Numbered from the stretch's first letter, positions 9,786 to 45,813 are shown. The stretch: 52,754 bases of DNA from Alphaproteobacteria bacterium (GCA_050175015.1 JBFXJJ010000007.1:74513-127266); one strand, 5' to 3'. Notes: generated from the sequence alone by a model not told the origin. Translations and numbers: made by a program.

Positions 9786-10094
9786 ATGATAACAGAAAAA
9801 TTTGAAGCATTTCAAACGAAGGGTGATCTTAAGGCTTTTTTATGTGGAATTGATAGCGCCGCTAAAGGTTATGATCGAGATGCCGTATTGGCAGAAGTCG
9901 CCGCTTCTAAAATAGCTGAAGCCGCAGGTGTTGTTCTGGCAGCAAAAGGCGGAGTTAAGGCTGTATTAGCGGAGACATTAACTTTAGGTGCAAATACCGT
10001 TATAAATATTGACAACAGCAACAAGCAACCAGACAAGAAAGCTGCTGGCAATATTATGGATATAATAAAAAAAACAAGAGCTCCCTCACGCTAA
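9786..10094 (+). CDS. Small Ala-rich hypothetical protein with basic C-terminal tail
   Basis: AGGAG RBS, own promoter and terminator; ends NIMDIIKKTRAPSR. Confidence 0.75.
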   Translation: MITEKFEAFQTKGDLKAFLCGIDSAAKGYDRDAVLAEVAASKIAEAAGVVLAAKGGVKAVLAETLTLGANTVINIDNSNKQPDKKAAGNIMDIIKKTRAPSR

Positions 10095-10116
10095 ATTGAA
10101 ATTAAACATTTTAACT

Positions 10117-10149
10117 AAAAGGCTTATTCTAAAAGAGTAAGCCTTTTTT
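10117..10149. terminator. Bidirectional intrinsic terminator
   Basis: AAAAGGCTTATTCT-AAA-AGAGTAAGCCTTTTTT. Confidence 0.8.
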
Positions 10150-10152
10150 GTA

Positions 10153-11118
10153 TTATAAGCATATTTTAGTTACGACCTTTGCTGCAGCATCGCAGTAAGG
10201 TAAAACAATATCCAAATTTTTCTTAGGTTTATTTGTATTTTGATATTCAAGAGCTTTTTCTACTAAGTTTTTAAATAAGGCATTGGCAATATTACCAAGA
10301 CCAGATTCTGAATGACTTTGAATTATTAAAATATTTTTATATTCTGCGGCCTCAACAAATCCCATATTGAGTGTTCCATCTTTTTTTACACTATAGGCAC
10401 ACGGAGTTAATTGCGGGGCAATGGTATCAGAACCAACAGCTTGATGATGAGAACTATAGCACCCAACTTGCTCTAACCCGATAATCTTTGCTAATTTGGA
10501 GCCCTTAATAATTCTTATATCGTGTGATGATGGGACAGGGTGAGAACCGCATTTTTCTCCTCTGTTAAGTTTTTCTTGCCAGATAACAACATCTTCAGCT
10601 TTCATATCACTTTTGCCAGCTAAGGTGTGAACATCATCATCTGGAAAAATATCAGGAAGATGCTGGATAAGAGTTCCTCTCTCTCCTAGTTTTTCTTCTG
10701 AGTGTTCTTCCTGCCATATTTTGCCTAGGATAACGTTTACGACTTGCATTCCTCTGCAAAAAGCAAGGAGAGGTTTTCCCGTTTTTACAGCGTTGCGTAC
10801 AAAACAATTCTCTAATGCAAAGCGTTCTTTTTCATTATCTTCTTCAATTATTGTTTTGGGGTGTTTTTCCTTGCCGTAAACCTTTGGATCAATATCTCCT
10901 CCTCCAGGAAGAGCGTATCCATCAATATTTAAAGCAATTTGGGTAACGTCAGCATCTCTTGGAACAAGAACAGGAATGCCGCCATTAACGGCAATATAGT
11001 AACAAATAAGCTGAACTTTGGCATAGCGTTCATTTTCATTTTCACTAGAAAGTATGTTGTCATATAAAGCGATTAAAGGTTTTTTTTGACATTCTTGTTC
11101 TAGTTCTTTGATGTTCAT
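10153..11118 (-). CDS. Peptidase C26 / gamma-glutamyl-gamma-aminobutyrate hydrolase-like glutamine amidotransferase
   Basis: GGIPVLVP, LPGGGDIDP..YG, AFCRGMQ (nucleophile Cys), SSHHQAV, QSHSE (His/Glu). Confidence 0.85.
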   Translation of the reverse strand: MNIKELEQECQKKPLIALYDNILSSENENERYAKVQLICYYIAVNGGIPVLVPRDADVTQIALNIDGYALPGGGDIDPKVYGKEKHPKTIIEEDNEKERFALENCFVRNAVKTGKPLLAFCRGMQVVNVILGKIWQEEHSEEKLGERGTLIQHLPDIFPDDDVHTLAGKSDMKAEDVVIWQEKLNRGEKCGSHPVPSSHDIRIIKGSKLAKIIGLEQVGCYSSHHQAVGSDTIAPQLTPCAYSVKKDGTLNMGFVEAAEYKNILIIQSHSESGLGNIANALFKNLVEKALEYQNTNKPKKNLDIVLPYCDAAAKVVTKICL

Positions 11119-11121
11119 TTT

Positions 11122-12063
11122 TTAGTTTGCTCCCCTAAGCTCACCTTTAATTAAAGCAGCTAAAACCGCAGATGAAGTATGCATTCTGTTTTCAGCTTGA
11201 TCAAAAACAACAGATTGTTTGCTGTCAATTACATCGGCTGTAACTTCTTCCTCTCTGTGAGCAGGCAGACAATGCATAAAAACGGCATCATCTTTGGCTT
11301 TCTTCATAAGATTAGAAGTTATTTGATAAGGCATAAAAGCTTTAAATTTGGTGTCTTTTTCTTCTGGGGAATCACCCATTGATAACCAGACATCGCCGTA
11401 AACGGCATCGGCATTTTTTAAAGCCTCTTCGCAGTCGTGGGTTACAACAATTTGACTTCCAGTTTTTTTAGCAATTTCTTTGGCTCTTGCAACTACTTCA
11501 GCGTTAGGTTCGTAGCCTTCAGGGGTCGCAACAGAAAAATCAGTGCCACATAAGGCACAAGCTTCTAATAAGCTGCTAACAACGTTGTTGCCGTCACCGA
11601 TATAAGCTAGCTTGCTAGTTTCAAGATTTTTGCGTACTTCGTATAAAGTCATTAAATCTGCAATGCTTTGGCAAGGGTGATGACCATCTGTCAAAGCATT
11701 AATCACAGGGATTGTTGCTGTTTTAGCTATAGCTTCAACATCTGAATCTTTATAGGTTCTGATAACAAAAGCCTTAGCATAACGGCTGATTACATTTGCC
11801 GTATCTTCTATTGTTTCGCCGCGGCCTAATTGTAATTCATTGCCATTGGTTGTAACGGGTATTCCGCCAAGACCAGCGATTGCAGCTGAAAAAGAAAGGC
11901 GTGTTCTCGTTGATGGTTTGTTAAAATACATAACAACAGTTTTGTTGGTTAATAAATCTTTGTCTTTTAATGGATTTTTTTTGAATTCAAGAGATAATTC
12001 GATAAGGTGGAGAAAATCTCCTGAAGTTAAGTCTGATGTTTTTGTTAGGTCTTTTAAAGGCAT
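11122..12063 (-). CDS. argF: Ornithine carbamoyltransferase
   Basis: KPSTRT, HPCQ, GDGNNV, DVWLSMG, MHCLPAHR, DQAENR. ATG 12063 with GGAG RBS. Confidence 0.93.
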   Translation of the reverse strand: MPLKDLTKTSDLTSGDFLHLIELSLEFKKNPLKDKDLLTNKTVVMYFNKPSTRTRLSFSAAIAGLGGIPVTTNGNELQLGRGETIEDTANVISRYAKAFVIRTYKDSDVEAIAKTATIPVINALTDGHHPCQSIADLMTLYEVRKNLETSKLAYIGDGNNVVSSLLEACALCGTDFSVATPEGYEPNAEVVARAKEIAKKTGSQIVVTHDCEEALKNADAVYGDVWLSMGDSPEEKDTKFKAFMPYQITSNLMKKAKDDAVFMHCLPAHREEEVTADVIDSKQSVVFDQAENRMHTSSAVLAALIKGELRGAN

Positions 12064-12144: not shown

Positions 12145-12162
12145 GTTTTGGGTTTTGCGCTA

Positions 12163-14940
12163 CTATCTTGTTTTTTCTTTAATTATTTGTGAAAGATTAG
12201 GCGCGCAGTTTTTTTTCTGCTCTTTTATTGCTTTGATTTTAGCTTTTGCTTCCTGCTGTTTAATTTCAACAGTTTTAGCTTTTTCAGTTTTGTTTTCATC
12301 GCCAAGAGTTTTGCTCACGATTTCATAAAGATTGCGTGAAATAGAAGGCTTTGCAGCAATATCATGCAAAGTGTTTTTCATCAAATCCTGACGTTCAGAG
12401 TCAAATTTGCGCCAATTTCCAAAAACAGATGCCATTTTAGCTGCGACGTGAGGATTGATGTCATCAAGTTTTTTAATTTGCTCGGCAACAAAATTATATC
12501 CTGAACCGTCTTTAGCGTGGAAAAGAGCGGCATTATTAGCAAAACCACCGACTAAAGATCTAAATTTATTAGGATTTTTAATATCAAAAGCGGGGTGTTC
12601 GGTTAAATCTTTTACCTTATCCAGAGTGTCTGGGCGGTCAGAGGTTGATTGTGCTGAAAGCCACTTGTTTACAGCCAAAGTTTCATTTTTATAACGATTA
12701 TAAAAATCACTAACAGCCTTTTCTCCGTTTTCTCCCTGCTGGTTTGCCATAATTCTTAAGCCGACTTCACGGTCATTCATATTATTGGCATCGCTATAAT
12801 GTCTTGCCATTAAGTCTTTGATTTTATCGTCATTATCAATCTGAGATAAATAGGACAAGGTAGCATTGCGCAAGGATCTTCTGCCTGAAGATGAGGCATC
12901 AGGAATATATTCGTCTTTAGAGCTTTCATTATTATAAACTTGAAGCAAATCTTCTTTTAATCCTGAGGCAATAGCTTTGCTAAAAGTTTTCCTTGCCAAA
13001 TGAATAGCGTCAGGATCAATGGTCTTGAACTGTTCGGCTATATAATCTTCACTTGGCAAAGTAATAGCTTTGGCAATAAAAGCCTTATCTAAGCTGTCAT
13101 CTTTGAGATAACCACGGAGGGTTTCAATATATTTATTATCAACCTTTGGTGTTTCGCCATTTTGAATTTCTTTAACCATAGAGATTAGTTGCTTAGTTGA
13201 ATATTGATAACCCGCTTCCCAGCGATTAAACAAATCGGTGTCGTGAGCCATTAAGGTGCGGTATTCCTCGGCGCTATAATCAACGTCGAGCTTTACTGGT
13301 GCCGTAAACCCACGGTTAATGGAAAGAATGGGAGCTTCATTGACATCGGTGAATTTAAAAACCTGTTCACCGTTTTCTAATCTTAGAATGCAAGATGTTC
13401 CAAGCTCATCTTTTCCGCCGTCAAGTTTCAAAGGAAGCTCTTGACCATTTTGATTAAGCAGTCCAACTTCTAAAGGAATCAAGAAAGGCTGGTTATCTTT
13501 ATTGCCAGATTTTTGAGAAACCTTGAGTTCATAGGTCTTAGTTTTAGGGTCGTATTTGCCTTCAGCTTTTACTTCAGGGGTTCCTGATTGATGATACCAA
13601 GTCATCATCTGCTTTAAATCCACATTAGGATTGGCATCAGCAATAGCTTTAACAAACTCATCACAGGTAACAGCTTGACCATCGTGTCTTGCAAAATAAA
13701 GATCCATACCTTTTCTAAAGCCGTCTTTGCCTGTAAGTCTTTCCATCATACGGATAACTTCAGCCCCTTTTTTATAGACGGTTGAGGTGTAGAAATTATT
13801 GATTGAAACATAAGAATCAGGACGGATAGAATGTGATAAAGGGCTGGCATCTTCAGGAAACTGAGCTGCTCTCAAGTTCATAACATCATTAATTCTTTGA
13901 ACAGGGCGAACTCTCATATCAGAAGAGAACTCTTGATCTCGGTATGACGTCAAACCCTCTTTAAGAGTAAGGTTGAACCAATCTTTCAGGCAGACACGGT
14001 TTCCCGTCCAGTTATGAAAATATTCGTGAGCCACAACTCGTTCAATATTGGCATAGTCAGCATCATTTGCCGACTGCGGATCTGCTAACACCGCACGATC
14101 GTTAAAAATATTAAGCCCCTTGTTTTCCATTGCGCCAAAGTTAAAATCAGAAACGGCAACAATGTTAAAGACATCTAAATCATATTCACGACCAAAGGCT
14201 TTTTCGTCCCAAGCCATAGCTTTTTTTAGAGATTCCAAAGCAAATTTGGTTTGATGTTCTTTGCCGTGTTCAACGTGGATAGCAAGCTTAATTTCTCTGC
14301 CAGACTTCGTTGTAAAAGTGTCTTCAACTCTAGCTAAATCGCCCCCAACTAAAGCATAGAGATGAGCAGGTTTTGGCCAAGGATCTTCCCATACGGCAAA
14401 AAGACGTCCATCGTCTAATTCTCCACGTTCTTTGGGATTGCCGTTAGCCAGCAAAATAGGAAACTTATCTTTATCGCCCCTAATGGTCGTTTTAAAAGTT
14501 GTCATAATATCAGGACGATCGGGATAATATGTTATTCTTCTAAAACCTTCAGGTTCGTTTTGGGTTGTAAAAACGTTATTAGAAACATAAAGCCCTTCCA
14601 ATCTGGTGTTGGCTTTAGGATTAATGGCGTTTTGGATTTTAAGTTCAAAATTGGCAGGAGGATTTAAAATGGTAATTCCTCCTTCTTTTTTTACAAAGTC
14701 TTTTGCTTCAAGAGGTTTGCCGTTAATTGCAATATTAAGAAGCTCCATATCTTCGCCCAAAAGCTCAAAAGGTACAGCCTTGCCTTCAGCGTCAACCATA
14801 CGTTCAACTTTCATCGTTGAAGTAACAACCGTTCTTTCGGGATCTAAATCAAATTCCAATTCTACGCCGTTTAAAGTGTAGTCTGGCTCTTTGTAATCCT
14901 TACGGTATTTCGTTTGTGGTTTATTTAAAGCTTCAGCCAT
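12163..14940 (-). CDS. pepN: Aminopeptidase N (M1) with a C-terminal extension
   Basis: EPEGFRRITY, GAMENKGLN, HEYFHNWTGNRV, LKEGLT, NNFYTSTVYKKGAE, NPNKFRSL. Confidence 0.97.
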   Translation of the reverse strand: MAEALNKPQTKYRKDYKEPDYTLNGVELEFDLDPERTVVTSTMKVERMVDAEGKAVPFELLGEDMELLNIAINGKPLEAKDFVKKEGGITILNPPANFELKIQNAINPKANTRLEGLYVSNNVFTTQNEPEGFRRITYYPDRPDIMTTFKTTIRGDKDKFPILLANGNPKERGELDDGRLFAVWEDPWPKPAHLYALVGGDLARVEDTFTTKSGREIKLAIHVEHGKEHQTKFALESLKKAMAWDEKAFGREYDLDVFNIVAVSDFNFGAMENKGLNIFNDRAVLADPQSANDADYANIERVVAHEYFHNWTGNRVCLKDWFNLTLKEGLTSYRDQEFSSDMRVRPVQRINDVMNLRAAQFPEDASPLSHSIRPDSYVSINNFYTSTVYKKGAEVIRMMERLTGKDGFRKGMDLYFARHDGQAVTCDEFVKAIADANPNVDLKQMMTWYHQSGTPEVKAEGKYDPKTKTYELKVSQKSGNKDNQPFLIPLEVGLLNQNGQELPLKLDGGKDELGTSCILRLENGEQVFKFTDVNEAPILSINRGFTAPVKLDVDYSAEEYRTLMAHDTDLFNRWEAGYQYSTKQLISMVKEIQNGETPKVDNKYIETLRGYLKDDSLDKAFIAKAITLPSEDYIAEQFKTIDPDAIHLARKTFSKAIASGLKEDLLQVYNNESSKDEYIPDASSSGRRSLRNATLSYLSQIDNDDKIKDLMARHYSDANNMNDREVGLRIMANQQGENGEKAVSDFYNRYKNETLAVNKWLSAQSTSDRPDTLDKVKDLTEHPAFDIKNPNKFRSLVGGFANNAALFHAKDGSGYNFVAEQIKKLDDINPHVAAKMASVFGNWRKFDSERQDLMKNTLHDIAAKPSISRNLYEIVSKTLGDENKTEKAKTVEIKQQEAKAKIKAIKEQKKNCAPNLSQIIKEKTR

Positions 14941-18280: not shown

Positions 18281-18487
18281 ATGCAAATGAACCGCTATAT
18301 ATCGATAAATTTTGAAGAACCTCTAGTTAGACGTCTTGAAAATATTGCGACTAAAACAGGAATGAGCTTAGATGTTTGTGCTTTACAGGCAATATATGAA
18401 TATATTGAAAACTGGGAAGATTTTTATAATTCTGAAATGCTTAATCCTGAAGAAGATGAAGAACGCTTCTTTTTAACGGCCATTTGA
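18281..18487 (+). CDS. Small ribbon-helix-helix (CopG-like) DNA-binding protein
   Basis: ISINF...L..RLE.IA..TG.S......AI.EYIE pattern; TTGACG-N16-TAATTT at 18229-18256. Confidence 0.65.
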   Translation: MQMNRYISINFEEPLVRRLENIATKTGMSLDVCALQAIYEYIENWEDFYNSEMLNPEEDEERFFLTAI

Positions 18488-18898
18488 TTTTTGCAAAATT
18501 TTTGCAGTATCTATGCTTTTAATGTTGTTATTACTGCTAACTCTCCTAATAATTTCACGAGCTCTTTTTGATGGTAGTTTGGTCAGAAAACCTCCGCCTT
18601 TGCCGTTTTTATATGGAGGGGTGCGTCCAACAGAAAGATATTGCTCTGCTGTAGGATCTAATATTTCGCCCCCTTTATTTTGAAGCCACCAGTGTGTAAC
18701 GCCTAAATCATCTTTGCCTCGGCAAGGCGTATAGCCAGAGTTTGATCCACCTAAAAGGTGATACAAAGCTTCTGATGCGGCATAACAATGACCCGCCATT
18801 GGATTGGTTTCAATATAAGATGCTCTAAATTCTGGCTTTAACAAATCAGGGGTTAAAACCTTTTTGATTTGAGATATTAGTAAAGCTTCTCTTTTCAT
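18473..18898 (-). CDS. Hypothetical protein with a putative Cys-His-Asp (papain/transglutaminase-like, YunG-like) triad
   Basis: NPMAGHCYAASEAL, THWW, ILDPTAEQY; ends ILQKSNGR. Confidence 0.65.
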   Translation of the reverse strand: MKREALLISQIKKVLTPDLLKPEFRASYIETNPMAGHCYAASEALYHLLGGSNSGYTPCRGKDDLGVTHWWLQNKGGEILDPTAEQYLSVGRTPPYKNGKGGGFLTKLPSKRAREIIRRVSSNNNIKSIDTAKILQKSNGR

Positions 18899-21289: not shown

Positions 21290-21389
21290 ACGTATTTCTC
21301 TTTGCAAGTATTATGTTTCGTGCATAATATAATTATAAAAATTTATTTTAAACCTATAAACTTTTATAGTAATCAGAGAATAAAAGCAA

Positions 21390-22667
21390 TTATTTTTGAA
21401 CAGAGTTTAGCATTTTGGCAAAGTTTACAAGATCTATTTTAGATGTTTGACTTGCTTTTGATGTAAAACCTTGGTTTCCATTTGTTTCAGAAATTTCTCC
21501 AAAAGCAGAACTTCTCGAATGACCTTCTTTGTATGCGCTATTCGTATCATAATCAGATCTTGTATCTAAATTTTGATAACTCGTATCGCCCTTATTGTCA
21601 GTTCTTTTTTCAAAGTCGTTGAAGTACTCATGCAAGAAGCTTTTAGTGGAAGTAGAAAGATCGACAAAGTGGCTGCTCGCAATAATTTCAGGATCTTTGG
21701 TGAAATAACTTTTGCCATTTTCATTGAGGCAGGTTTGTCTAACAACCTCAGATGCTGTTATTTCGTCTCGATGAGCTTCATCTATGCCTATTGTCATCTC
21801 TTTATTTTTGTTTGCAACGCTGATGCTTTGTTTTTGCTTCCCATGCTGGTTTTTCAAAAGAGTTTGTAGCTCTTCTGCTGTTTCAGGAGCTAAGGCTTCT
21901 TCTCTGCGGCATATTTGATTAATAATTTCTTGGGCAGTTATTTCATCACTGTAAGTATCTTTTGATTCTATCCCGCTTTCTTGGTGTTCTTTCATTACGT
22001 TAACTGTATAACCTTGTTCATATAAGGTCTTAATTTTATTGTTATCATACCAGCCTAAAAAAGCTTGAGTTCTTGCTTCGCCGTTTGTTAATGCTTTTTC
22101 ATCATTAGAAACAGCATCTGCAAATCTATTGGCAATTTCTGGAGACACACTGGCAAAAGCTCTAAACGGCGCCATATCACCATTGTCCCAAATTTCCCAT
22201 AAAGCTTGAGCTGCAGTAGCTTGAGCATCAGCTTCGGTTGCACGATATTTCATAAGCTCAGACTTGATACTATAATTACGTGGTCTCGTTGTATCTTCAG
22301 AATCTAATTCTCCACGCTCAAATTGACCAGCGTGGCGAGCCTCGTGGATTAATACTCCTGCCAATTTATCGTTGGAAGTAAAAGGGTCTAACACAATTAA
22401 TTTTTTGCTTTTTGAGGTTCCGCCATTGGAGCCAAAGGCAAATTCCATATTTAATCTGTAGCCAGCTTTAGATGCAATCTCTAAAGTTTCCTTGCCAGTT
22501 TTGCTGGTGGCAATGATATTGATTATATCACAAAGTTTAGCAATTTCCTTAGGATTATCGGTAAGAAATTCAAAAGCTGGTGTAATATTCTGCTTAAAAG
22601 AACTTTCATTAGAACCAGATTCTTGGCTTAAGGCTTTTTTCAAACTTGGACTATTTTTATTGGTCAT
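21390..22667 (-). CDS. Putative zinc metallopeptidase (DUF6782-like)
   Basis: SKTGKETL, LIHEARHAGQ (22332-22346) and downstream RATEADAQA; low-complexity C-terminus; no signal peptide. Confidence 0.7.
   Translation of the reverse strand: MTNKNSPSLKKALSQESGSNESSFKQNITPAFEFLTDNPKEIAKLCDIINIIATSKTGKETLEIASKAGYRLNMEFAFGSNGGTSKSKKLIVLDPFTSNDKLAGVLIHEARHAGQFERGELDSEDTTRPRNYSIKSELMKYRATEADAQATAAQALWEIWDNGDMAPFRAFASVSPEIANRFADAVSNDEKALTNGEARTQAFLGWYDNNKIKTLYEQGYTVNVMKEHQESGIESKDTYSDEITAQEIINQICRREEALAPETAEELQTLLKNQHGKQKQSISVANKNKEMTIGIDEAHRDEITASEVVRQTCLNENGKSYFTKDPEIIASSHFVDLSTSTKSFLHEYFNDFEKRTDNKGDTSYQNLDTRSDYDTNSAYKEGHSRSSAFGEISETNGNQGFTSKASQTSKIDLVNFAKMLNSVQK
21729..21947 (-). repeat. Diverged intragenic duplication with a 180-nt period
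   Basis: DEITAQEIINQIC (21909-21947) and DEITASEVVRQTC (21729-21767). Confidence 0.6.
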
Positions 22668-35655: not shown

Positions 35656-35836
35656 AAAATAATCCTAAAAACAGTTGTAATTTCAAAAAAACATAGTAAT
35701 TAAATAACATGATTTTATCTATTTTTATTTTATTGTATTTTTTTTGTTGAAAAAATAGACTAAAAAATGTATTTAATAAAAATGAGACAAATTTTTTTAT
35801 CTCTCTCTATGACTTTTTATGAAGGAGGCTATCAAA

Positions 35837-36112
35837 ATGGCATTAAAAGTTACAGCAGATTTTATGGAAAATGAAAAAGGCGAGATCTTGCTCGCAATTC
35901 CTGCTAGTGAAGGTGAACCTCTCGAGCCGACTCTTTCATTCAATGAAGATGCTTCCGTTGCCGAATTAAAACGCAGTAAAGGGCAAATGATTGAAATTCC
36001 TAACATTCACCCAGATATTAGAAGCAAACTTCTAAAAACAACAAAAATTCTAGTTACTGAAGTCGGTAACAATAAAATTAATAACGGATATTATGTTACG
36101 GTTACGAAATAA
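35837..36112 (+). CDS. Small partner protein A (91 aa), paralog of 38599..38889
   Basis: AAGGAGG RBS at 35822-35828 before ATG 35837; shared VTAD..EN..G..LLA, NIHPD.R.KL, KILVTEVG, NGY. Confidence 0.85.
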   Translation: MALKVTADFMENEKGEILLAIPASEGEPLEPTLSFNEDASVAELKRSKGQMIEIPNIHPDIRSKLLKTTKILVTEVGNNKINNGYYVTVTK

Positions 36113-36157: not shown

Positions 36158-38443
36158 ATGGCTGAAATACAATTACCAAATGAAATAACAAAAGCATTAC
36201 AGGATTTTTTTCAGAATAAGGACATAACAGTTTATGAAGCAGGTTTAGAAGAAGATCGTCCTTCTAGAATTCAAGACCGTCCTTTCTTCGACGTCGTTCC
36301 TGAATCTGAGACAACATGGTTGGCAAATAAAGAAGGTGCTAAAACAGCTGGAAGTTATAAGTTAGCTTTAGGAGCTGAACAGGAACCAAATACCAATACT
36401 CTTGATACCGAAAGCCATAAATTCATTCAAGATGTAGAAAAACGTTTTCGTGATCTGCAGCCAAATGCAAAACTTTTCATTATCGATCCCGATGTTGTTA
36501 TGGGACGCTATGCTATGGATACCTCAAGAGATCGTAGCATTGGTAAATCAATGGTTGAATTTCTGCATGATAAATTAACAGAGAATAATATTACGGAACA
36601 TAAGGCAGAGCCTGGTGATGAAAGTGTTTTTGTTCCCGCATCTATTACAGGAAATTCACCATTTAGTATGCCTCTTCCAACAGGAGTTACAGAGGAAAAC
36701 CTTGCTGGTACTGGAAAAATATGTGTTGTTGTTGCTTCTAATCCAGACAAGATTATGCACGATTTATGGACTAGAGTTCCTGGCTCAGAGGAACGTATGG
36801 CTGAATTAGGAATAGATTTTGATTCAACAAGACGTATGGTTCTTTACCATGAGTTGGGTCACTCTATGGATATTTGGTCAGATAAAGGTGTTGGTAATCC
36901 TATTACAAATAATAATATTGTAGACCAGACGTTAAGACGTCATAGAACAGAATGCTTAGCCGATACGTTTGCAACCCTTCAGGTTGCTAGAGATTTTAAA
37001 TCTACAGCAACTCCAGAATTGATGGCAGACTTAAGAGCTTGCTTTGCTTATGAAGGTTTTAAAGAGGATTCTCCAGAACACCGCGCTAAAATGAAAATGT
37101 TTAGTATTCTGGGTGACGAACGGAAAAAACATGAAAAAACCAAAAAACTAGAAAAGAAAATGGGAATAGCTGAAGTTCCAACAAAAGCAACTAAAGATGT
37201 TTTGAAACTTGAAGAAACAGCTAAAGATTTTGAAGTATTAAAATCTATTGGAATGACGTTGGCTTATAATGTAACTCCAATTACTGATGTTGCGATTAAA
37301 GTTGCAAAAGAAGGTTTAAAAGACGGTTCTTTATTGAAAATGACAGATAAAGAAGTTCTTGAACTTGCGGAAAAGATTGTTGAAGAAAATGCTTTTGATA
37401 AAAACCGTTTGAATCAAGCTGCCATGGATATCTTAACAGGAAATAAAGAAAATCCAGATCTTAAAGCTATTGAAAATCGTTATCAGCAAGCTTTGTCAAA
37501 TATGCCTCTTCCTGCTAGTGAAATGGCGAAACGTTTAGAAGAAAAACAGAAAAAACAAGAAGAAGCTATTACCAAACAACTTAGAAAACAACTTCACTTA
37601 AAGGTTGAAGATGAGATAAAACCAAAGGGTAATCCGGAAGAAGTCGCATCTCTACTAAGATGGGTTGACAATGTTTACGATAATATCGAGAGAAAAGGCG
37701 GCAATCTTTCGGCTATTGTTTCTTCTGTTTCTGAAGAAAAAGATAAACTCAGAGTTGGAAAAAGTGCCGATAAGCTATATGATAAAAAACTTGCGATTTT
37801 AGATGTTATGTTTATTAATCAAGCTCCAGAAGTCGAACTTGGAATCAAGGCAAGTGCGGCTGTTGCAAAATCTATTGAAGCTTTAGATGTTAAAATTGAT
37901 GGCTTGGATGGTGTATCTGGGGTAAGTTTGATTAATGCTTTTATCCAATATGAAATGGGCAATGCTAAAAAATGTGTTGAAAACATTGCCGCTAAACAAG
38001 AAGTTGATTATGCATCAATGGATATTGTTGAACTGAATAAGGTTCAAGCCAAAGAAAATCAAGAGTATGTAGGACTTCTTTCTGGTGAGAAAATTTCTCA
38101 GGCTTTAGCTGTTAAAATTCGTACAGACAAGGAAGCTTGGAAAGTTGTGAGTGGTTCTGAGAAAATGAGAGATTTGGTTACCAAAAAAGCATTGGGACGT
38201 CCTAGTGATTGGCTTGCAAGTTACCACATTTCTTTAATCGAGAGAAGCCGGGATCGTCAAGAAGATGTACTGTCAAACATAGGGGTAAGCAATATGAACT
38301 ATGCTAGTGCTGTTAAAGAAATTAATAAGAAAGCCTCACAAATGAATGGTGTGGATAAAACTGAAATTGTTTCAGTCAAGCCTCAGAAAACGGCACCATC
38401 AATGCCAAACGTTTTAATGGCATCTAAGTTAAGTCAAAGATAA
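36158..38443 (+). CDS. Uncharacterised HExxH zinc-metalloprotease-like protein, paralog 2 (761 aa)
   Basis: HELGH at 36848-36862, then RTECLAD. Confidence 0.8.
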   Translation: MAEIQLPNEITKALQDFFQNKDITVYEAGLEEDRPSRIQDRPFFDVVPESETTWLANKEGAKTAGSYKLALGAEQEPNTNTLDTESHKFIQDVEKRFRDLQPNAKLFIIDPDVVMGRYAMDTSRDRSIGKSMVEFLHDKLTENNITEHKAEPGDESVFVPASITGNSPFSMPLPTGVTEENLAGTGKICVVVASNPDKIMHDLWTRVPGSEERMAELGIDFDSTRRMVLYHELGHSMDIWSDKGVGNPITNNNIVDQTLRRHRTECLADTFATLQVARDFKSTATPELMADLRACFAYEGFKEDSPEHRAKMKMFSILGDERKKHEKTKKLEKKMGIAEVPTKATKDVLKLEETAKDFEVLKSIGMTLAYNVTPITDVAIKVAKEGLKDGSLLKMTDKEVLELAEKIVEENAFDKNRLNQAAMDILTGNKENPDLKAIENRYQQALSNMPLPASEMAKRLEEKQKKQEEAITKQLRKQLHLKVEDEIKPKGNPEEVASLLRWVDNVYDNIERKGGNLSAIVSSVSEEKDKLRVGKSADKLYDKKLAILDVMFINQAPEVELGIKASAAVAKSIEALDVKIDGLDGVSGVSLINAFIQYEMGNAKKCVENIAAKQEVDYASMDIVELNKVQAKENQEYVGLLSGEKISQALAVKIRTDKEAWKVVSGSEKMRDLVTKKALGRPSDWLASYHISLIERSRDRQEDVLSNIGVSNMNYASAVKEINKKASQMNGVDKTEIVSVKPQKTAPSMPNVLMASKLSQR

Positions 38444-38598: not shown

Positions 38599-38889
38599 AT
38601 GGATAGTAAAATTTTGGAAATAAGAGTTACCGCAGATATTTTAGAAAATGGCAGAGGTGATTTGCTGCTGGCTTTTCACGCAGTTGAGGGCAAGCCAGAA
38701 GCACCATCTTTTACAATAAACGAAGGAACTGGGGTTTTATCTCGAAATGCTACGCAGAATGTTGTTATTGGTAATATTCACCCCGACGTAAGGCAGAAAT
38801 TATCAAATGCTAACAAAATTTTGGTAACAGAGGTTGGTTCGCAAGGGATTGTTAATGGTTATTTTGCGAATGTAAGGGCAATGAATTAA
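38599..38889 (+). CDS. Small partner protein B (96 aa), paralog of 35837..36112
   Basis: About 42 identities over 91 aa with partner A by manual alignment; ends 19 nt before paralog 3. Confidence 0.85.
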   Translation: MDSKILEIRVTADILENGRGDLLLAFHAVEGKPEAPSFTINEGTGVLSRNATQNVVIGNIHPDVRQKLSNANKILVTEVGSQGIVNGYFANVRAMN

Positions 38890-38908: not shown

Positions 38909-41251
38909 ATGGCGGAAAGTGAAATGAGCAAAGAAGTTATGACTGCTCTAGAAGACTATTTTAACAGCCCTATTCAAGTTTATGAATGTGGTAGCGAGCA
39001 AAATCGCCCTGAGCGAATTCAGGATAGACCATTTCTAAAAACACTACCAGATGGCCATACGGTATATGTCCAAAAAACATCTGCAACCAAATCTGTTGGT
39101 TCTTTTGCGCTTTCTTTAGACAAACCGATTATTGGCGGCTCAATTGCTGCTGAAACCGAAAACAGTAAATTCTTGCAGGAAATGCAGGAGCGTTTTAGAA
39201 ATGCTAAAGAAGATGTTAATTTAATTATTATTGATCCCGATGTTATTCGTGGTCGTTATGCAATGGATGAAAATCCCCGCCGTACATTATTCCAAAGTTT
39301 TTATGAATATTTACATGGGAATATGGAACAGGACGGAGTATCTAAAGCAATGCCTCTTTCTAAAGAAGATTATGGTGTGCTTATGGAATCCGCAATATTG
39401 GGCAACAGTCCGCTATCTCTTGGGGTGCCAATTAAAGGTTTGGGACAATATGCTATTGTTATATCAAGTCAGCCTGATATGCCAATGCATGATATGTTTA
39501 CCTCAATTCCTGGTTCAGAAATTCGTATGGAACATCTTAAAATTGGCAAAGAGCATGTCCGTGATATGATTCTGCTTCATGAGTTAGGTCATGCATTGGA
39601 TACGCTTAATAAGCAAGAAGATGGCGACACTATTGCTGATGATATTTTAAAACGTCATAGAACAGAATGTGTTGCCGACGTTCATGCAACTTTGCAGACA
39701 GCTAAGAAGTATGGCAGTACAGATGTTGGCAAGCTAGTTAGTGATATTCGTATTGATAACACTGTTCAAGGTATTGCCTATATTCAAAGGCAGCTTTCTG
39801 GAGGTATGGGGCTTGAAGGTGATGTCGAAGGTCTTAAAGGAGCTTCAAGACTTACCTTAAAGACAGTTGATAATGTTTTACGTGAAGATTTTGAAAAACA
39901 AAAATACTTTGCTTCTCCTGAACTAAAAGCTTTTGTTGAAGCAAAAGGTGCAGAGAAAAAGAAAGCTAGCGGCAGCAAAAAAGTTAGTGCTCCTAAGCAG
40001 CCTTCTGCTCAAGACGTACTTGAGAATATTGAACAGAGTGCTCAGCTTCTTAACGTTGCAGAGGTTCTTGGTTCAATTTCATCTTATACCACAAGCTTTT
40101 GTGCCGATGCTGCTGTTAAAATTGCTGACAAAAAATTAAAAGACGGCAGTTTAGCAAAAATGACAGATAAGGAAATTCACAAGCTTGCAGAAGAAATTGT
40201 TGCTAAAGAAGCCTTTGACAAAGCTCAAATTACGGGCTTGGTAATGGGTATGATAACAGGGGAAGAAACTCCTGAATTTATTAAAATCGTTGATCGTTAC
40301 CAAGAAGCAACAACTCGTTTTCCTGAGGACAAGAAAAAACAGGCTGAAGCTCAAATGGCAGCTATGGGTTTCCCTGTTCCAAAGCCAAAGCTCACCCCAG
40401 AAGAAACTGTAAGTTTCAAGAATTGGTGGGAACGTGAAATGGCAGAAAAAATTGAAGCCAAGGGTTCAACGAGAGAAGCCTTGCTAGGTGTTGTCGAAGC
40501 TGAAAAAGATGAGGCTCGTAAAGCTGATACTCTTTACAACCAATATAAAATTGCGGTTATGAATCAGTTGTTTATGGAAAACCCTGATAGAATGACAGAT
40601 AAAGCTAAAACTTTCGGAACAGTTAGAGATACTTTGAAAAATATTGAAGCTCCAGTTGTTGAAGAAAAAGGTTTAAAAGCTGTAGCTGCTTTTGTTGAAA
40701 CGGAGATGAAAGCTTTAGATACAGGTTTGAAAGCTGTAGAATTAGCTGAAGGCAGGAATATTGCTTCAATGTCTCCAGAAGTGTTTGCAAAGACTGTTTC
40801 TAAAGAAAGCAGAAATCTTAAGAAGCTTTATGAAGAGCAGAAAAAACTCCAAGCATTGGCTTTTGCTATTCGTAAGGATCCAGAAGCTTGGGAAGCTGTA
40901 AGCAAGACTCCTCTGTTAGCACAGAAAATTGAGGAACAAGCTAAACAAAAGCATCCTGTTTGGGTTGAAGGCGTTCACCTTAATTTAGGACAGAATACTG
41001 CTCAGGATTTAAAAAATTCAAAAGATGGAATAACGCTTGATAAAAAAGTTTTAGCATCATGTGTTTTACAATCTGAGGCGGTTTCAGGCGTGGTTGCGAA
41101 AACAACACTTAAGAAATTAGAAAATGAATTACCTCAACAGCAAGGTTCTTCTTCTGGTCTTAAGAGTGAAAGTAGTCGTAAAAAGCGCGAATATACTGAA
41201 TCAGAAGGAATAAGATGGAATCTTTTGAACAAAACAGGACGTTCTAAATAG
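38909..41251 (+). CDS. Uncharacterised HExxH zinc-metalloprotease-like protein, paralog 3 (780 aa)
   Basis: AAGGAG RBS; HELGH at 39578-39592, then RTECVAD. Confidence 0.8.
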   Translation: MAESEMSKEVMTALEDYFNSPIQVYECGSEQNRPERIQDRPFLKTLPDGHTVYVQKTSATKSVGSFALSLDKPIIGGSIAAETENSKFLQEMQERFRNAKEDVNLIIIDPDVIRGRYAMDENPRRTLFQSFYEYLHGNMEQDGVSKAMPLSKEDYGVLMESAILGNSPLSLGVPIKGLGQYAIVISSQPDMPMHDMFTSIPGSEIRMEHLKIGKEHVRDMILLHELGHALDTLNKQEDGDTIADDILKRHRTECVADVHATLQTAKKYGSTDVGKLVSDIRIDNTVQGIAYIQRQLSGGMGLEGDVEGLKGASRLTLKTVDNVLREDFEKQKYFASPELKAFVEAKGAEKKKASGSKKVSAPKQPSAQDVLENIEQSAQLLNVAEVLGSISSYTTSFCADAAVKIADKKLKDGSLAKMTDKEIHKLAEEIVAKEAFDKAQITGLVMGMITGEETPEFIKIVDRYQEATTRFPEDKKKQAEAQMAAMGFPVPKPKLTPEETVSFKNWWEREMAEKIEAKGSTREALLGVVEAEKDEARKADTLYNQYKIAVMNQLFMENPDRMTDKAKTFGTVRDTLKNIEAPVVEEKGLKAVAAFVETEMKALDTGLKAVELAEGRNIASMSPEVFAKTVSKESRNLKKLYEEQKKLQALAFAIRKDPEAWEAVSKTPLLAQKIEEQAKQKHPVWVEGVHLNLGQNTAQDLKNSKDGITLDKKVLASCVLQSEAVSGVVAKTTLKKLENELPQQQGSSSGLKSESSRKKREYTESEGIRWNLLNKTGRSK

Positions 41252-41541: not shown

Positions 41542-42186
41542 ATGGAAGCAAAAGTAGCAATTCAAAACAGCCATAAAACAGCTTATGTTGTCCCTTGTTC
41601 AAACACATTTCGCAATGATGTTTTAGAGCTGGCTAAAAAGAAAAAAGTTAATGCTGGAGATTTAGCTCGTTCTATTTTTCTAATCTTTTCTAAAGAGGAA
41701 ATTGAAGCTTTTCCTGACACCGCAGAGCCTGATATCTACGAGAGAGAAGAAGTTGTCTTAAAAAGCGGTACAGCTAAAGGACAGAGTTTTAAGAGGAAAC
41801 CTCGTTTGCAGGTAAGAATGCCTCAGGGACTTTCAGCATCATTTATAAGAAAATCATTATTAATGGCGCTCGCGCTTGAAAAAAAAGAATTATCGTTAGA
41901 GCTTGACCAAAAGCAGACACCTAAAAAGAATGACTTAAAACAGGAAATAGATCGTTTAAAAACGGTTATTTCTCATCTAGCGTTTGAACCACTTAGAGAT
42001 GGGGTTAGAAGCAAAGATGAAGCTTTATTTGTCTTAGGCTTTCCTCCGCACTCTAATCCAGATTTAACGCTGGCTAAAGTGAAGTTTAGAATCTTGGCAT
42101 CTATTTTTCACCCAGATAGCATTTTTGGAAGCCACGATCGTATGAGTAATATTAATTCAGCTATGGATTTTTTCAGAAATAGATAA
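41542..42186 (+). CDS. Protein with a C-terminal J (DnaJ-like) domain
   Basis: ALFVLGF...KFRILASIFHPD...M..INSA (HPD motif); N-terminal domain unrecognised. Confidence 0.75.
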   Translation: MEAKVAIQNSHKTAYVVPCSNTFRNDVLELAKKKKVNAGDLARSIFLIFSKEEIEAFPDTAEPDIYEREEVVLKSGTAKGQSFKRKPRLQVRMPQGLSASFIRKSLLMALALEKKELSLELDQKQTPKKNDLKQEIDRLKTVISHLAFEPLRDGVRSKDEALFVLGFPPHSNPDLTLAKVKFRILASIFHPDSIFGSHDRMSNINSAMDFFRNR

Positions 42187-43776: not shown

Positions 43777-44269
43777 AAGAAAGCCCCTTGTCTGAAATTA
43801 TTTTCATCAATGCTGCATAGCTTGTGTTCATACCCTCTTTGATATTGGAATATTTTTTTTCAATATTTAAGAGTTCACGATAAAGCGGAATTATAATTGA
43901 ATTTAGAGTATCTCTTTTAGGTACTCTTCGGTTTGAATGATAGCCTATAATTTTATTGTTATTGTCAAAACAAGGAGTTATATGGGCAAAAACCCAATAG
44001 TTATCACCATTTTTGGCTCTGTTATTTACATAAGCAAACAGTTCTTTGCCGCTTTGAACGGTATCCCATAATAATTTGTAGATACAGCGAGGCATTTCAG
44101 GGTGTCTAATAATATTGTGAGGTTGATATAAAATTTCAGATTCTTCATATCCTGAAATCTTTAAAAAAATATCATTAGCATACGTAATTATGCCTTTAGT
44201 ATCCGTTTTACTTACAATGATCTCATCTTCATCAAAGGTACGTTCTTTACCAGTCAGGCTTTTTTCCAT
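43751..44269 (-). CDS. Stand-alone Aer-type PAS protein (CetB-like)
   Basis: [53 protein letters not shown]. Confidence 0.92.
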
Positions 44270-44304
44270 AATAAGTTTAATCTCAAAAAAGGTTAAAAGA
44301 TAAA

Positions 44305-44328
44305 TAGGGGCTTTTGGAAAAGCCCCTA
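44305..44328 (-). terminator. Hairpin / terminator after the BI-1 gene
   Basis: TAGGGGCTTTT-GG-AAAAGCCCCTA perfect inverted repeat. Confidence 0.7.
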
Positions 44329-44337
44329 GTGTTTTTT

Positions 44338-45078
44338 TTATTTGCGATTGCCGAAGAAGCGAAGCAAATATAAGAACATATTGATAAAGTCCATATAAAG
44401 CTCTAGAGCTCCAGAAATGGATTTTCTTGTACTCATATCATAGTTATCTCCGCTGTAGTAAATTCTTCTAATTTTTTGAGTATCATAAGCGGTTAAACCG
44501 ACAAAAATCAAGACACCTAAAACTGATACTGCAAAATCAAGTCCTGAGCTTCTCATAAAAATATTAACAATGCTGGCTAAAATTATGCCCCAAAGCCCCA
44601 TATATAAGAAGGACCCTAGACCAGTTAAATCTTTTTTGGTTGTATAACCTAAAAGACTCATTCCCGCAAAAGTTCCAGATGTTATTAAGAATACTCTAGC
44701 AACACTTGCTCCCGTATAAAGCGCAAGAACAGGAGCAATTGAAAGTCCCATTAGTGCAGAAAAAGCAAAGAAAGCAATTTGAACTTTTTGTAGGCTGGAA
44801 TTTCTTATAGCGTAGCTTAAATAAAAGACACAGGCAAAAGGAGCAATTAAGGCAGCAATGCCTAAGAAGCTTAAGCCATACCCGCCGTTTGCTGTTTGGG
44901 TATAGAACATCGATATTGCATTTGTTTCTATTATAAGATAAGAAACAAAAGCCGTTATTAAAAGACCGGTTGTCATATAGTTATAGACCCCCAGCATATA
45001 TTTTCTAAGACCTTCATCGATAGCTTGCCCTACAGAGGCATCGCTTCTTACAAAATCTTGGTAGCGATCATTAGACAT
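44338..45078 (-). CDS. Bax inhibitor-1/YccA-family membrane protein
   Basis: IDEGLRKYMLGVYNYM, GYTTKKDL, TAYDTQKI, GALELYMDFINMF. Confidence 0.95.
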   Translation of the reverse strand: MSNDRYQDFVRSDASVGQAIDEGLRKYMLGVYNYMTTGLLITAFVSYLIIETNAISMFYTQTANGGYGLSFLGIAALIAPFACVFYLSYAIRNSSLQKVQIAFFAFSALMGLSIAPVLALYTGASVARVFLITSGTFAGMSLLGYTTKKDLTGLGSFLYMGLWGIILASIVNIFMRSSGLDFAVSVLGVLIFVGLTAYDTQKIRRIYYSGDNYDMSTRKSISGALELYMDFINMFLYLLRFFGNRK

Positions 45079-45186
45079 GGTTTTCTCCTAACAATGTTTT
45101 TAATAATACTAAAATAAGATTTGCCCATTTAAAAATCAAGTTAAATGGGCAAATATTCTTATTGTGTAATATATTTCGGAACAAAA

Positions 45187-45813
45187 TTAACGGCTATTGC
45201 CTTTTGCTTTAATTGTTGCGGCATAACGAGCTTGCGCATCAGCTTCTTTTTTGCGTTCAGCTGCAATCTCCTGACGGACTTTAATAGCTGCCTTTTTATA
45301 GGATTCATAGGATTCTTCATAATATTTTTCAGGATCTAAAGGCATACGACCTCTAGATAAATCCTTATCAATTTTTGCTCCAACAAGCTCTAAATCCTGC
45401 AGAGTTGCATTTTGATTAGAATCACAGGTTTTAATATTAGTAAAATCAGCATTTTTTACGTGGCAGAAAAAGAAGTAGCTTGATTCCATTTTGGCGCCGC
45501 AGAACTTAGCTGATTCCAAATCGGTTCCATAGAAAGCCGCATTACGAGTATCAGCATTAGTAAAATTAGCGTTTTTCAGTTTAGCGCCCTGTAATTGTGC
45601 TCCTTGAACATCTGCACCTTCAAAATCAGCGCCATCAAACTTGCCGCCTCTTAATTTAAGACCGCTAAGATCTTGATTTCTTAAATCTGCTCCAGATAAA
45701 TCTTTTCCTTTTTCTACAGCTTCTTGAATCATTTGTCCGAAGTTGCGAGCATATGTTGAGTAAAGGACTACACCTTCTTTGTTTTTGACCTCATAAACGT
45801 CAGGCTTATTCAT
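45187..45813 (-). CDS. Pentapeptide-repeat protein with basic C-terminal tail
   Basis: A(D/N)(L/F)xx repeats (ADLRN, ADFEG, AKLKN, ANFTN); AGGAG RBS before ATG 45813; ends IKAKGNSR. Confidence 0.88.
   Translation of the reverse strand: MNKPDVYEVKNKEGVVLYSTYARNFGQMIQEAVEKGKDLSGADLRNQDLSGLKLRGGKFDGADFEGADVQGAQLQGAKLKNANFTNADTRNAAFYGTDLESAKFCGAKMESSYFFFCHVKNADFTNIKTCDSNQNATLQDLELVGAKIDKDLSRGRMPLDPEKYYEESYESYKKAAIKVRQEIAAERKKEADAQARYAATIKAKGNSR

Follow-up and report, generated by a model that had tools for sequence, protein, structure and literature searches.

A modular C-terminal tail on unrelated soluble proteins, mostly zinc peptidases, looks like an address tag in uncultured bacteria

Why should eight proteins from several unrelated families, all encoded in one 52.7-kb stretch of alphaproteobacterial DNA (the whole of the DNA analysed here, hereafter the window), end in the same kind of short basic tail? 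The original prediction read these ends as a secretion signal of the type IV kind, and the eight C-terminal peptides on which it was built are indeed present at the respective genes. The carriers comprise an ORFan of 102 aa without a Pfam or NCBIfam family (9786..10094, plus strand; tail NIMDIIKKTRAPSR, the last 14 codons at 10050-10091), aminopeptidase N (PepN, M1 by Pfam; 925 aa; 12163..14940, minus strand; NLSQIIKEKTR), a YunG-family protein (141 aa; 18473..18898, minus strand; TAKILQKSNGR at nt 18476-18517), a DUF6782 putative zinc metallopeptidase (425 aa; 21390..22667, minus strand; variant tail VNFAKMLNSVQK), three HExxH paralogues on the plus strand, namely, paralogue 1 (741 aa; 30393..32618; AIALRRLNDGRS), paralogue 2 (761 aa; 36158..38443; NVLMASKLSQR) and paralogue 3 (780 aa; 38909..41251; WNLLNKTGRSK, with two residues after the Arg), and a pentapeptide-repeat protein recognised by Pfam (208 aa from the ATG at 45813; 45187..45819, minus strand; AATIKAKGNSR). 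Peptidase assignments extend to five of the eight (PepN, DUF6782 and the three HExxH paralogues) rather than to the six originally counted, the 18473 and 45187 products being a YunG-family and a pentapeptide-repeat protein, respectively. In line with the original prediction, a crude hydropathy test detected no Sec-like N-terminus and no transmembrane segment in any of the eight: the maximum KD(10) within the first 45 aa is at most 1.43, versus at least 2.54 for nine signal/TM-like window proteins, and no 19-residue segment above KD 1.55 was found. The housekeeping neighbours ychF, prs, argF, polA and rplY lack the tail, as had been stated. A further ORFan downstream of the HExxH cluster (214 aa; 41542..42186, plus strand; no Pfam or NCBIfam family) has a borderline tail, AMDFFRNR, and was left out of the carrier count.

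The DUF6782 protein matches its Pfam family (PF20573) with an E-value of 2.1e-45 and a score of 155.3 bits (cutoff 27), the match stopping at residue 255 of 425, far short of the tail. In the family alignment (A4), H108 of the HExxH motif is invariant and E109 and H112 are at least 90% conserved; the AF2 model of the window protein displays a weak likeness, to zincins only. Among 149 non-self representatives, each at most 50% identical to the others, 103 end in Arg and 16 in Arg plus one residue, whereas a terminal Arg occurs in 10 of 90 generic controls. Ends of the form K/R-R-G-R are frequent in the family; QK forms the last two residues both of the window copy and of P0231, the relative closest to it. 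Only one of 119 tail-bearing representatives has a Sec-like N-terminus or a TM segment. The tail on DUF6782 is unreported in the literature searched, which yielded no paper on the family.

A position matrix (PSSM) was trained solely on the 119 non-window DUF6782 tails, with the 99th and 99.9th percentile cut-offs set on 50,500 internal positions. Seven of the 45 window C-termini reach the 99th percentile, and six of these belong to the predicted carriers: 18473 (12.6, the window maximum, exceeding all internal positions), 36158 (7.6), 38909 (6.5, two trailing residues allowed), 9786 (6.4, reached by 0.05% of internal positions), 45187 (6.1) and 30393 (2.7). The remaining one, the YgjV membrane protein at 5323, barely passes (2.3). 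By score, the other two of the original eight, the window copies of PepN (−0.1) and DUF6782 (−1.4, the QK end), fall below the cut-off; the ORFan at 41542 scores 1.2, a value reached by 1.7% of internal positions. Five of 45 C-termini attain the 99.9th percentile, and two of these belong to small proteins, 18473 and 9786, that lie outside the DUF6782, PepN and HExxH families. By comparison, spurious stop-to-stop frames of the same DNA pass the two cut-offs in 27/696 (3.9%) and 7/696 (1.0%) cases (binomial p = 9e-5 for 5/45 at the 99.9th percentile), and generic C-termini in 2/87 and 1/87. The same DUF6782-only matrix recognises 26 of 27 distinct extended PepN tails, 8 of 10 tails of the ~780-aa HExxH family and the end of P0139, a relative of the pentapeptide carrier. 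It picks no canonical PepN end (0/58). The likeness of the tails is neither chance nor an AT-rich artefact, and the claim that unrelated proteins have a tail in common is borne out against both backgrounds.

The window PepN contains all four PepN Pfam domains. The M1 domains end at residue 879, and the protein continues beyond them for another 46 aa (880-925, about nt 12166-12303). Extensions of at least 25 aa are present in 43 of the 119 homologues listed, of which 41 end in R and two in RS, compared with none of the 76 canonical PepNs in the same list ending in R. The linkers preceding the terminal R or RS measure 40-110 aa, and 26 of the 43 extended proteins end in ER, with Glu at position −2. 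PepN, a housekeeping enzyme, appears to have gained the tail; its long retention in a clade spanning 41-52% identity looks like stable cell biology, unlike a fast-turning effector set.

The ~780-aa HExxH proteins constitute a new family. Its members, about 30% identical, retain the tail behind a segment that changes in both length and sequence. Of 10 distinct tails from outside the window, nine have R as the last or last but one residue, and the GC content of the source DNA is 35-39% in the window and 51% in a related locus (L001). Besides the three HExxH genes, the window contains one DUF6782 gene, and one MAG accession series contains one HExxH gene, three DUF6782 genes and extended-PepN fragments. 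Comparison of the HExxH family with DUF6782 by hhalign gives a probability of 2% (E 0.024), only the HExxH and a downstream E-x-x-A-D-A being aligned, and an atlas feature score of 0.81 is a lead only; for paralogue 2, no PDB fold was matched at E <= 0.001. Two small plus-strand ORFs, 48% identical to each other, precede paralogues 2 (97 aa; 35819..36112) and 3 (96 aa; 38599..38889), and the former has no family in Pfam or NCBIfam and no PDB relative. Complex prediction for the 35819 product and the first ~65 residues of the HExxH protein gave 0.75, versus 0.00 for the best of three controls. Among solved complexes, 116/157 attain the mark of 0.75, as do 2/215 mismatched pairs (a rough calibration, since the alignments were self-made); at least 86% of contacts recur between runs, with partner pLDDT of at least 80. 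The modelling supports, rather than shows, binding of the small adjacent protein to this conserved N-terminal segment, a predicted pairing which resembles that of secretion chaperones.

The 18473 product matches Pfam YunG at E 4.4e-4, under the family cutoff, and scores 0.97 to YunG clusters in the atlas; its phage homologues align to residues 1-119 only, and its relatives are fused to DNA-repair domains or encoded beside a phage DNA polymerase gene. The sole ortholog-like match of the pentapeptide-repeat carrier, P0139 (54% identity), ends in IASIAKGKSR and has a PSSM score of 11.1.

The conserved block comprises the last 14 residues and is anchored strictly at the C-terminus: a variable linker is followed by a hydrophobic patch at −7 to −11, K/R at −3 to −6, G/S/E at −2 and the terminal Arg. 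Net charge over the last 20 residues is at least +3 in 139 of 164 tails (100/119 DUF6782, 25/28 PepN, 9/9 HExxH and 5/8 window), and in 97 of the 164 there are more Lys than Arg residues. Only at the last position does Arg prevail. In both AF2 models the tail is disordered or of low confidence, with pLDDT below 50 at aa 383-413 and 420-425 of the window DUF6782 (DSSP assigns a helix to 413-424) and at aa 739-761 of HExxH paralogue 2 (pLDDT 71), which suggests that it does not dock on its own protein. Because the terminal Arg codons differ among carriers (CGC, AGA, CGT) and no common 3′ DNA motif was found at the carrier genes, the signal is one at the protein level. In the window as a whole, Arg makes up 3.9% of residues and Lys 8.5%; basic-residue ends also occur on the window proteins 5323, 28839, 44338 and 49871, which had not been claimed as carriers.

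The tail motif exists, is under selection and conserved, is common to several families and is modular. Since relatives of four carrier families in other uncultured bacteria bear it too, it looks like a real protein-targeting label. The cross-recognition by the matrix, the shared motif and the Sec-less nature of the carriers together suggest, at the level of sequence, a modular C-terminal address tag on unrelated soluble proteins, mostly zinc peptidases, of which we found no earlier description in the literature searched.

How might such a tag operate? We infer a scheme in which the disordered linker of variable length, the hydrophobic patch of 4-5 residues, the Lys/Arg block, a small or acidic residue and the terminal Arg with its free carboxylate would be read in trans by a dedicated receptor. 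The tag would send cytosolic proteins lacking signal peptides, chiefly zinc peptidases (PepN, DUF6782, HExxH), to a Sec-independent destination, most likely export or translocation out of the cytoplasm, and the leading named candidate for the reader would be the VirD4-type coupling protein of a type IV secretion system (T4SS). To this combined reading (receptor, export and T4SS as the leading named machine) we tentatively assign a probability of about 0.4. T4SS signals generally have a positively charged C-terminus that also contains hydrophobic residues (PMC11098119, PMC4546372), and in Rickettsia, RvhD4 is bound by the C-terminal tails of two proteins, RalF and RARP-2 (PMC4546372, PMC11077975). 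In these two properties the T4SS-type signal originally proposed agrees with the tails. Other observations speak against it. As noted from the outset, Pfam detects no T4SS gene in the 52.7-kb window, nor VirD4 or another secretion-machine gene, and none was seen in the 22-kb L001, judged by its listed ORFs and their termini. The consensus R-x7-R-x-R-x-R, reportedly derived for Agrobacterium T4SS substrates by Vergunst and colleagues in 2005, occurs in 0 of 164 tails, and Lys commonly exceeds Arg. To our knowledge, T4SS signals are loosely conserved and none is anchored to one terminal residue, so that a strictly C-terminus-anchored Arg is atypical of them. Furthermore, the YunG-family carrier is no obvious effector, the named carriers all come from uncultured MAGs without known host-cell association, and the predatory or parasitic lifestyle once envisaged finds no support here.

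A tag for docking or for a compartment would account for the almost invariant final Arg, and for the deeply conserved tail of PepN, no less well than an effector signal. The tail could tether the peptidases and a few other enzymes to a shell or to a protease/unfoldase complex within the cytoplasm, concentrating peptide breakdown, a possibility that we regard as somewhat unlikely overall. Motifs anchored at the C-terminus include PTS1 (-SKL), HbYX and SspB XB, and such strict anchoring is typical of docking; five of the eight carriers being peptidases and the old, stable tag of a housekeeping PepN point in the same direction. However, no shell protein (Linocin_M18/HK97-like) or candidate scaffold is found in the window, the encapsulin core motif is present in 1 of 164 tails, and the pentapeptide and YunG carriers are ill-suited to a proteolysis hub; we know of no comparable tag that marks peptidase cargo or docks peptidases. 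Encapsulin targeting peptides nonetheless have the same build, with basic residues meeting an acidic patch (PMC7925596).

A degron, in which the basic C-terminus would serve as the site of an AAA+ protease or adaptor and limit potentially harmful peptidases, is improbable. In its favour, the tail is a short, disordered segment at the C-terminus, Flynn and colleagues reportedly described basic ClpX recognition motifs at C-termini in 2003, and peptidase cargo could require tight control; but the ssrA-like non-polar final pair is found in 0 of 164 tails, the 40-110-aa linker added to PepN would be unneeded and conservation on 119 of 149 divergent DUF6782 representatives would be unusual. A slightly smaller chance still attaches to an electrostatic anchor in direct contact with nucleic acid or with the surface of the inner membrane, like MinD/FtsA helices or AT-hook-like K/R-G-R ends. 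The hydrophobic patch next to a basic block, the charge of at least +3 in most tails (139/164), the many K/R-R-G-R ends of DUF6782 and the short helix drawn by AF2 at the end of the window DUF6782 are compatible with it, whereas the frequent Glu at −2 speaks against it, and lipid or DNA binding needs no invariant last residue. An amphipathic membrane-targeting helix of the MinD/FtsA type was rejected: with a helical hydrophobic moment of 0.242, the 119 tails examined do not exceed internal 12-mers (0.288) or shuffled tails (0.300). Finally, that the tail has no function, being Lys-rich AT-rich coding plus the usual basic bacterial C-termini chosen by eye, has hardly any probability left. In its favour, the motif spans few residues, 3.9% of spurious frames reach the 99th percentile, unclaimed window proteins have basic ends and the scores of the window PepN and DUF6782 copies are low. 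Against it, Arg rather than Lys defines the motif, the 51%-GC relative retains the tail, PepN tails contrast with canonical ends (26/27 versus 0/58) and DUF6782 representatives with generic controls in terminal R (103/149 versus 10/90), and no common DNA motif exists. This explanation is refuted for the family-level pattern and could still hold for the window PepN, the window DUF6782 and 41542.

Returning to the putative export tag, how does it compare with known systems? A sortase/exosortase-type signal (LPXTG, PEP-CTERM) was rejected, the eight carriers having neither a hydrophobic N-terminus nor a C-terminal TM helix, and NCBIfam C-terminal sorting models gave no match on the seven carriers other than PepN. 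PTS1 and SspB XB are likewise short, portable motifs fixed to a free carboxylate behind a flexible linker, but their sequences and organisms differ. Dot/Icm (type IVB) signals carry an acidic E-block upstream of the end; such a block (at least three D/E within −8..−20) occurs in five of 164 tails, the tails here being basic. Alike in the two cases are the C-terminal position, the disorder and a hydrophobic residue near the end, as reported for Legionella RalF (PMC4546372). Family-1 encapsulin targeting peptides share the flexible linker, a short hydrophobic-plus-basic motif at or near the C-terminus, reading in trans and unrelated cargo enzymes, and have GSL or hydrophobic-Gly-hydrophobic as their conserved core (PMC7925596). 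That core (GSL/[LIV]G[LIV]) is practically missing here, known encapsulin cargo consists of iron or redox enzymes rather than peptidases, linkers here extend up to 110 aa, and no encapsulin shell gene (HK97-fold, Linocin_M18) has a Pfam match in the window. VirB/VirD4 signals lie within the last ~20-50 residues, a range that takes in the 14-residue block. They differ in that the tails here are Lys-dominated except at the last position, with a nearly invariant terminal Arg, and the BID domain of Bartonella Beps is absent from the Pfam matches of all window proteins. Nevertheless, the signals of Agrobacterium VirF, VirE2 and VirE3, Bartonella Beps and Rickettsia RalF and RARP-2 resemble the tails in being extremely C-terminal, unstructured and net positive with some hydrophobic residues, and their substrates, too, are Sec-less, belong to unrelated families and occur in Alphaproteobacteria (PMC11098119, PMC4546372, PMC11077975, PMC4653730).

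The eight proteins bearing the C-terminal tail, in which a linker is followed by a hydrophobic patch, a Lys/Arg block, a small or acidic residue and a final Arg, are encoded among 45 plausible genes (GC 34%–39%) of alphaproteobacterial-looking content, including IalB, rplY-pth-ychF, prs, argF, pepN, polA, an MCP + PAS protein and a xanthine-dehydrogenase-like operon. Those relatives of the window proteins that have names come without exception from uncultured organisms ('MAG: Alphaproteobacteria bacterium', 'Acetobacter sp. CAG:977', a contig labelled 'uncultured Rhodospirillaceae'). The tail is carried by a 102-aa ORFan starting at 9786, with neither a Pfam nor an NCBIfam family; the M1 aminopeptidase PepN (12163-14940, minus strand; 925 aa), whose Pfam domains stop at aa 879; a YunG-family protein (18473-18898, minus strand; Pfam below cutoff, Atlas score 0.97); a DUF6782 putative metallopeptidase (21390-22667, minus strand); three HExxH paralogues of 741, 761 and 780 aa (30393-32618, 36158-38443 and 38909-41251, all on the plus strand), which share an invariant HExGH..D motif and show 32%–34% identity to the first; and a pentapeptide-repeat protein (45187-45819, minus strand). 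All eight C-termini quoted in the original prediction are present in the window sequence, and the proposed lack of Sec signals agrees with a crude hydropathy test, which detected a hydrophobic N-terminus or transmembrane segment in none of the eight carriers versus nine other window proteins; peptidase evidence was obtained for five of the eight rather than the claimed six. Pfam yielded no match for the three HExxH paralogues, two small ORFs associated with them, 9786 or the ORFan 41542, the 12 proteins scanned against NCBIfam had no match up to any family cutoff, and the C-terminal sorting models of NCBIfam matched none of the carriers scanned, a set that did not include PepN. A foreign origin of the tail-bearing genes found no sign in base composition, which is the same as that of their neighbours (mean GC 0.379 vs 0.365; GC3 0.265 vs 0.280). 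Proteins of phiCbK-like Caulobacter phages match aa 1-119 of the YunG-family protein at 52%–56% identity, and one of these homologues, in phage CcrRogue (L002), adjoins the DNA polymerase I gene. Elsewhere in the window, 46008-46859 (minus strand) encodes a very acidic 283-aa protein (pI 4.1) that contains several EF-hands and shows a weak dockerin-like match, an unusual combination for the bacterial cytoplasm, and a 346-aa ORF without family (20267-21307, minus strand) lies between the DUF6782 and MFS transporter genes on the same strand, its sole match being a weak NCBIfam hit to the chlamydial CT392 family (E 0.04).

Outside the window, the tail recurs in several of these families. PepN has 342 homologues at E <= 0.001, of which the best 120, query included, were listed, giving 119 for comparison. 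The canonical end, at or near ..YEI(A/V)SKSL, is found in 76 of these 119, none of the 76 having a terminal Arg; the 43 closest listed homologues (41%–52% identity) carry C-terminal extensions of 25 to ~110 aa that end in R (41/43) or RS (2/43), and all are unnamed or labelled 'MAG: Alphaproteobacteria bacterium'. Judged from these sequences, the linker and tail on a housekeeping PepN are a clade-specific gain. Most of the extended PepNs (P0019-P0065) also contain an internal motif, roughly F-x-K-x-x-x-V/L-K-x-F/Y-x-S-G; the window PepN (extension 12166-12303) and P0026 have a shorter extension lacking this motif. The DUF6782 representative search returned 303 matches at E <= 0.001, and among the 149 non-self representatives of the best 150 listed, fragments included, R is the last residue in 103 and the penultimate one in 16, K is last in 7, and the other 23 end differently, the commonest last pairs being GR (37), SR (29) and ER (10). 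By comparison, 10 of 90 generic controls (non-orthologous pentapeptide proteins) have a terminal R (Fisher p = 1e-19). The window DUF6782 protein and its closest relative share a variant end, ..QK. A further motif, [LIVMF]-P-[LIVMTS]-[RK], occurs at a median distance of 35 residues from the C-terminus in 42 of the 119 tail-bearing DUF6782 representatives (P0231-P0379); it may mark a site of processing or constitute another conserved element. The only ortholog-like match of the window pentapeptide protein (P0139, 54% identity) ends in ..IASIAKGKSR, compared with ..ATIKAKGNSR in the window.

With the 761-aa HExxH protein as query, 17 matches were obtained, query included; after exclusion of P0002, a truncated protein of 662 aa, and P0010, whose end is aberrant, the remaining matches, together with the homologue from L001, a 22-kb locus, provide 10 different tails from outside the window. 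In nine, R is the last or the penultimate residue (for instance, ..VVLNAKKQRS, ..MLLSAQKQR, ..RNMKAKTR and ..GLKEGGR), P0004 (..KDGKTV) being the sole non-conforming case. L001 was the one distant locus recovered by scanning genome contigs with the HExxH alignment (30% identity, 51% GC). Because nine of the ten tails conform, including a locus of such different composition, the tail is retained at ~30% identity and across base compositions; the 60-100 residues upstream of it align poorly and vary in length. Searches of plasmids and phages with tblastn gave no match for DUF6782 or the 761-aa protein.

The position profile of 156 distinct non-window tails comprises R at −1, G (.36), S (.22) or E (.11) at −2, K (.33) or R (.15) at −3, positions rich in K/R/A from −4 to −6, and L/A/I/V from −7 to −11. 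Early regular-expression tests, in which the patterns were enriched versus internal positions, were replaced by a cross-family scoring matrix because the patterns had been made by eye. As a safeguard against circularity, the matrix was retrained on the 119 DUF6782 tails alone, with 0-2 trailing residues allowed and thresholds set from 50,500 internal positions. These 14 columns separate carriers from non-carriers: at the 99th percentile or above, distinct tails of extended PepNs were recovered in 26/27 cases versus 0/58 for canonical PepNs (23/27 and 0/58 at the 99.9th), with corresponding counts at the two marks of 8/10 and 7/10 for non-window HExxH tails, 2/87 and 1/87 for generic C-termini, and 7/45 and 5/45 for window proteins. 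The latter rank as 18473 (12.6, exceeding all internal positions), 36158 (7.6), 38909 (6.5), 9786 (6.4), 45187 (6.1), 30393 (2.7) and 5323 (2.3), a YgjV membrane protein that was not among the predicted carriers and probably represents a false hit; scores are weak for the window copies of PepN (−0.1) and DUF6782 (−1.4). In the same DNA, 27/696 and 7/696 spurious stop-to-stop frames reached the two marks (~1% for the latter), against which 5/45 has p = 9e-5, or p = 9e-4 with paralogues counted once. Both 18473 and 9786 lie outside the DUF6782, PepN and HExxH families, which makes these two top scorers independent of the training data. In keeping with the original prediction, the window tails are thus enriched over background, exceeding both the spurious-frame and the generic C-terminus nulls. 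Lys is twice as common as Arg in the window proteome, yet it is Arg that defines the tail, and the terminal Arg codons differ among carriers; the 3' ends have no DNA motif in common, and a shared DNA element was therefore rejected. The tail is not an artefact.

A 214-aa ORFan directly after the HExxH cluster (41542-42186, plus strand) has a borderline tail (..AMDFFRNR, score 1.2) and may be a further carrier. Peptidyl-tRNA hydrolase (6925-7659, minus strand) extends ~59 aa past its Pfam domain, which stops at aa 185 of 244, and terminates in ..AKALAAISKNNDKEME, which pairs the motif's hydrophobic and basic portions with an acidic end (score 1.3).

In the AF2 models of the DUF6782 protein (pLDDT 82) and the 761-aa HExxH protein (pLDDT 71), both linker and tail fall below pLDDT 50 and are undocked on the protein's own body. 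Neither model had a PDB fold match at E <= 0.001: DUF6782 resembles only zincins, and weakly (selecase, Wss1, LasB, M1 and ArdC), and the best match of the HExxH model is DPP III (E 0.15). In both families an E-x-x-A-D-A motif follows HExxH, ~26-34 residues downstream in the window copies, and the catalytic cores may share a distant relationship; the hhalign comparison of the two family alignments (A3 and A4) gave no significant match for a single superfamily (probability 2%). Paralogous ~96-aa ORFs without known family (35819-36112 and 38599-38889, both on the plus strand; 48% mutual identity) immediately precede two of the three HExxH genes (36158-38443 and 38909-41251). Co-folding of the 35819 product with the 761-aa protein scored 0.75, compared with 0.00 for the best of three controls; the score mark is reached by 116/157 solved complexes and 2/215 mismatched pairs, counts that are only rough, own alignments having been used. 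The runs agreed in at least 86% of contacts, with a partner pLDDT of at least 80, and placed the interface at residues 5-66 of the 761-aa protein, a segment conserved in the HExxH family and of low confidence in the monomer model. This supports the predicted binding of the small protein to the N-terminus of the 761-aa protein, an arrangement that, as modelled, is reminiscent of a dedicated adaptor or chaperone. The small ORF has no copy upstream of the first paralogue or in L001, and comparison with PDB sequences gave nothing meaningful (best match cytochrome b5, E 0.004, 44 residues). The tail families are multi-copy: the window holds three HExxH genes and one DUF6782 gene, and the accession series MCK5295247 to MCK5297252, apparently one MAG judging from the numbering, includes one HExxH protein, three DUF6782 proteins and fragments of two extended-PepN clusters. 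We count the multi-copy families and the small predicted partner ORF as supporting an 'effector-like' set.

As to what reads the tail, several C-terminal signals of T4SS substrates are pertinent: in R. typhi, the C-terminal sequence of RalF is reported to be required for RvhD4 binding (excerpts from PMC4546372), RARP-2 has such a C-terminal tail (excerpts from PMC11077975), and the C-terminal signal of VirF is arginine-rich (excerpts from PMC4653730). The T4SS interpretation in the original prediction fits general signal descriptions; counting against it, the Pfam annotation of the window and the ORF list and termini of L001 include no candidate reader gene, the Agrobacterium consensus is matched by 0/164 tails, an E-block-like cluster occurs in 5/164, and T4SS signals are not known to have a near-invariant terminal residue. 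Encapsulin targeting peptides, described as a 10-20-residue flexible linker, hydrophobic residues and Lys/Arg near the C-terminus (excerpts from PMC7925596), are equally similar in architecture, yet 1/164 tails contain the GSL core of these peptides and no shell gene lies nearby in the window. These comparisons, for and against, set the weight of each reading. An export signal, with T4SS as the first candidate, is our leading interpretation (probability roughly 0.4). Somewhat less probable is a tag for docking or encapsulation inside the cell, favoured by the encapsulin-like architecture and disfavoured by the rarity of the core and the missing shell gene. A degron would be quite improbable. 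Direct membrane or nucleic-acid binding is the least probable of these four: 139/164 tails have a net charge of at least +3 over the last 20 residues, but an amphipathic helix is ruled out by a hydrophobic moment (0.242) not above those of internal 12-mers (0.288) and shuffled tails (0.300).

In the searched literature, which left subscription papers and bioRxiv supplements aside, 'DUF6782' and 'PF20573' appeared in no paper found, and searches on PepN C-terminal extensions or arginine, Rs-D84/RF32/CAG-977 secretion, cargo motifs and VirD4 turned up no account of the motif. We tentatively consider, at slightly lower odds than export, that the tail is the address label of an undescribed targeting system, in which a receptor would grip the Arg carboxylate and deliver its cargo to a new destination. 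The cargo would be zinc peptidases of the PepN, DUF6782 and ~780-aa HExxH families plus a few other proteins, the destination could be a non-T4SS secretion route or a peptidase-filled compartment or complex, and the host would be a widespread lineage of uncultured Alphaproteobacteria, judged from record titles. We regard the tail as a portable C-terminal sorting signal, a kind of signal already known, and see a real chance that it has a new reader. A housekeeping aminopeptidase appears to be re-addressed across an entire clade, and the tail is the first functional handle on DUF6782 and the new ~780-aa HExxH family. The matrix would make possible a complete cargo list for every genome of the uncultured lineage, from which the reader could be found by phyletic profiling or peptide-receptor modelling. 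Portable C-terminal tags define whole cargo sets in other systems, such as T4SS effectors, encapsulin cargo and PTS1 proteins. With a T4SS as its reader, the tail would be an unusually well-defined signal of that type; with any other reader, it would point to a new targeting system.
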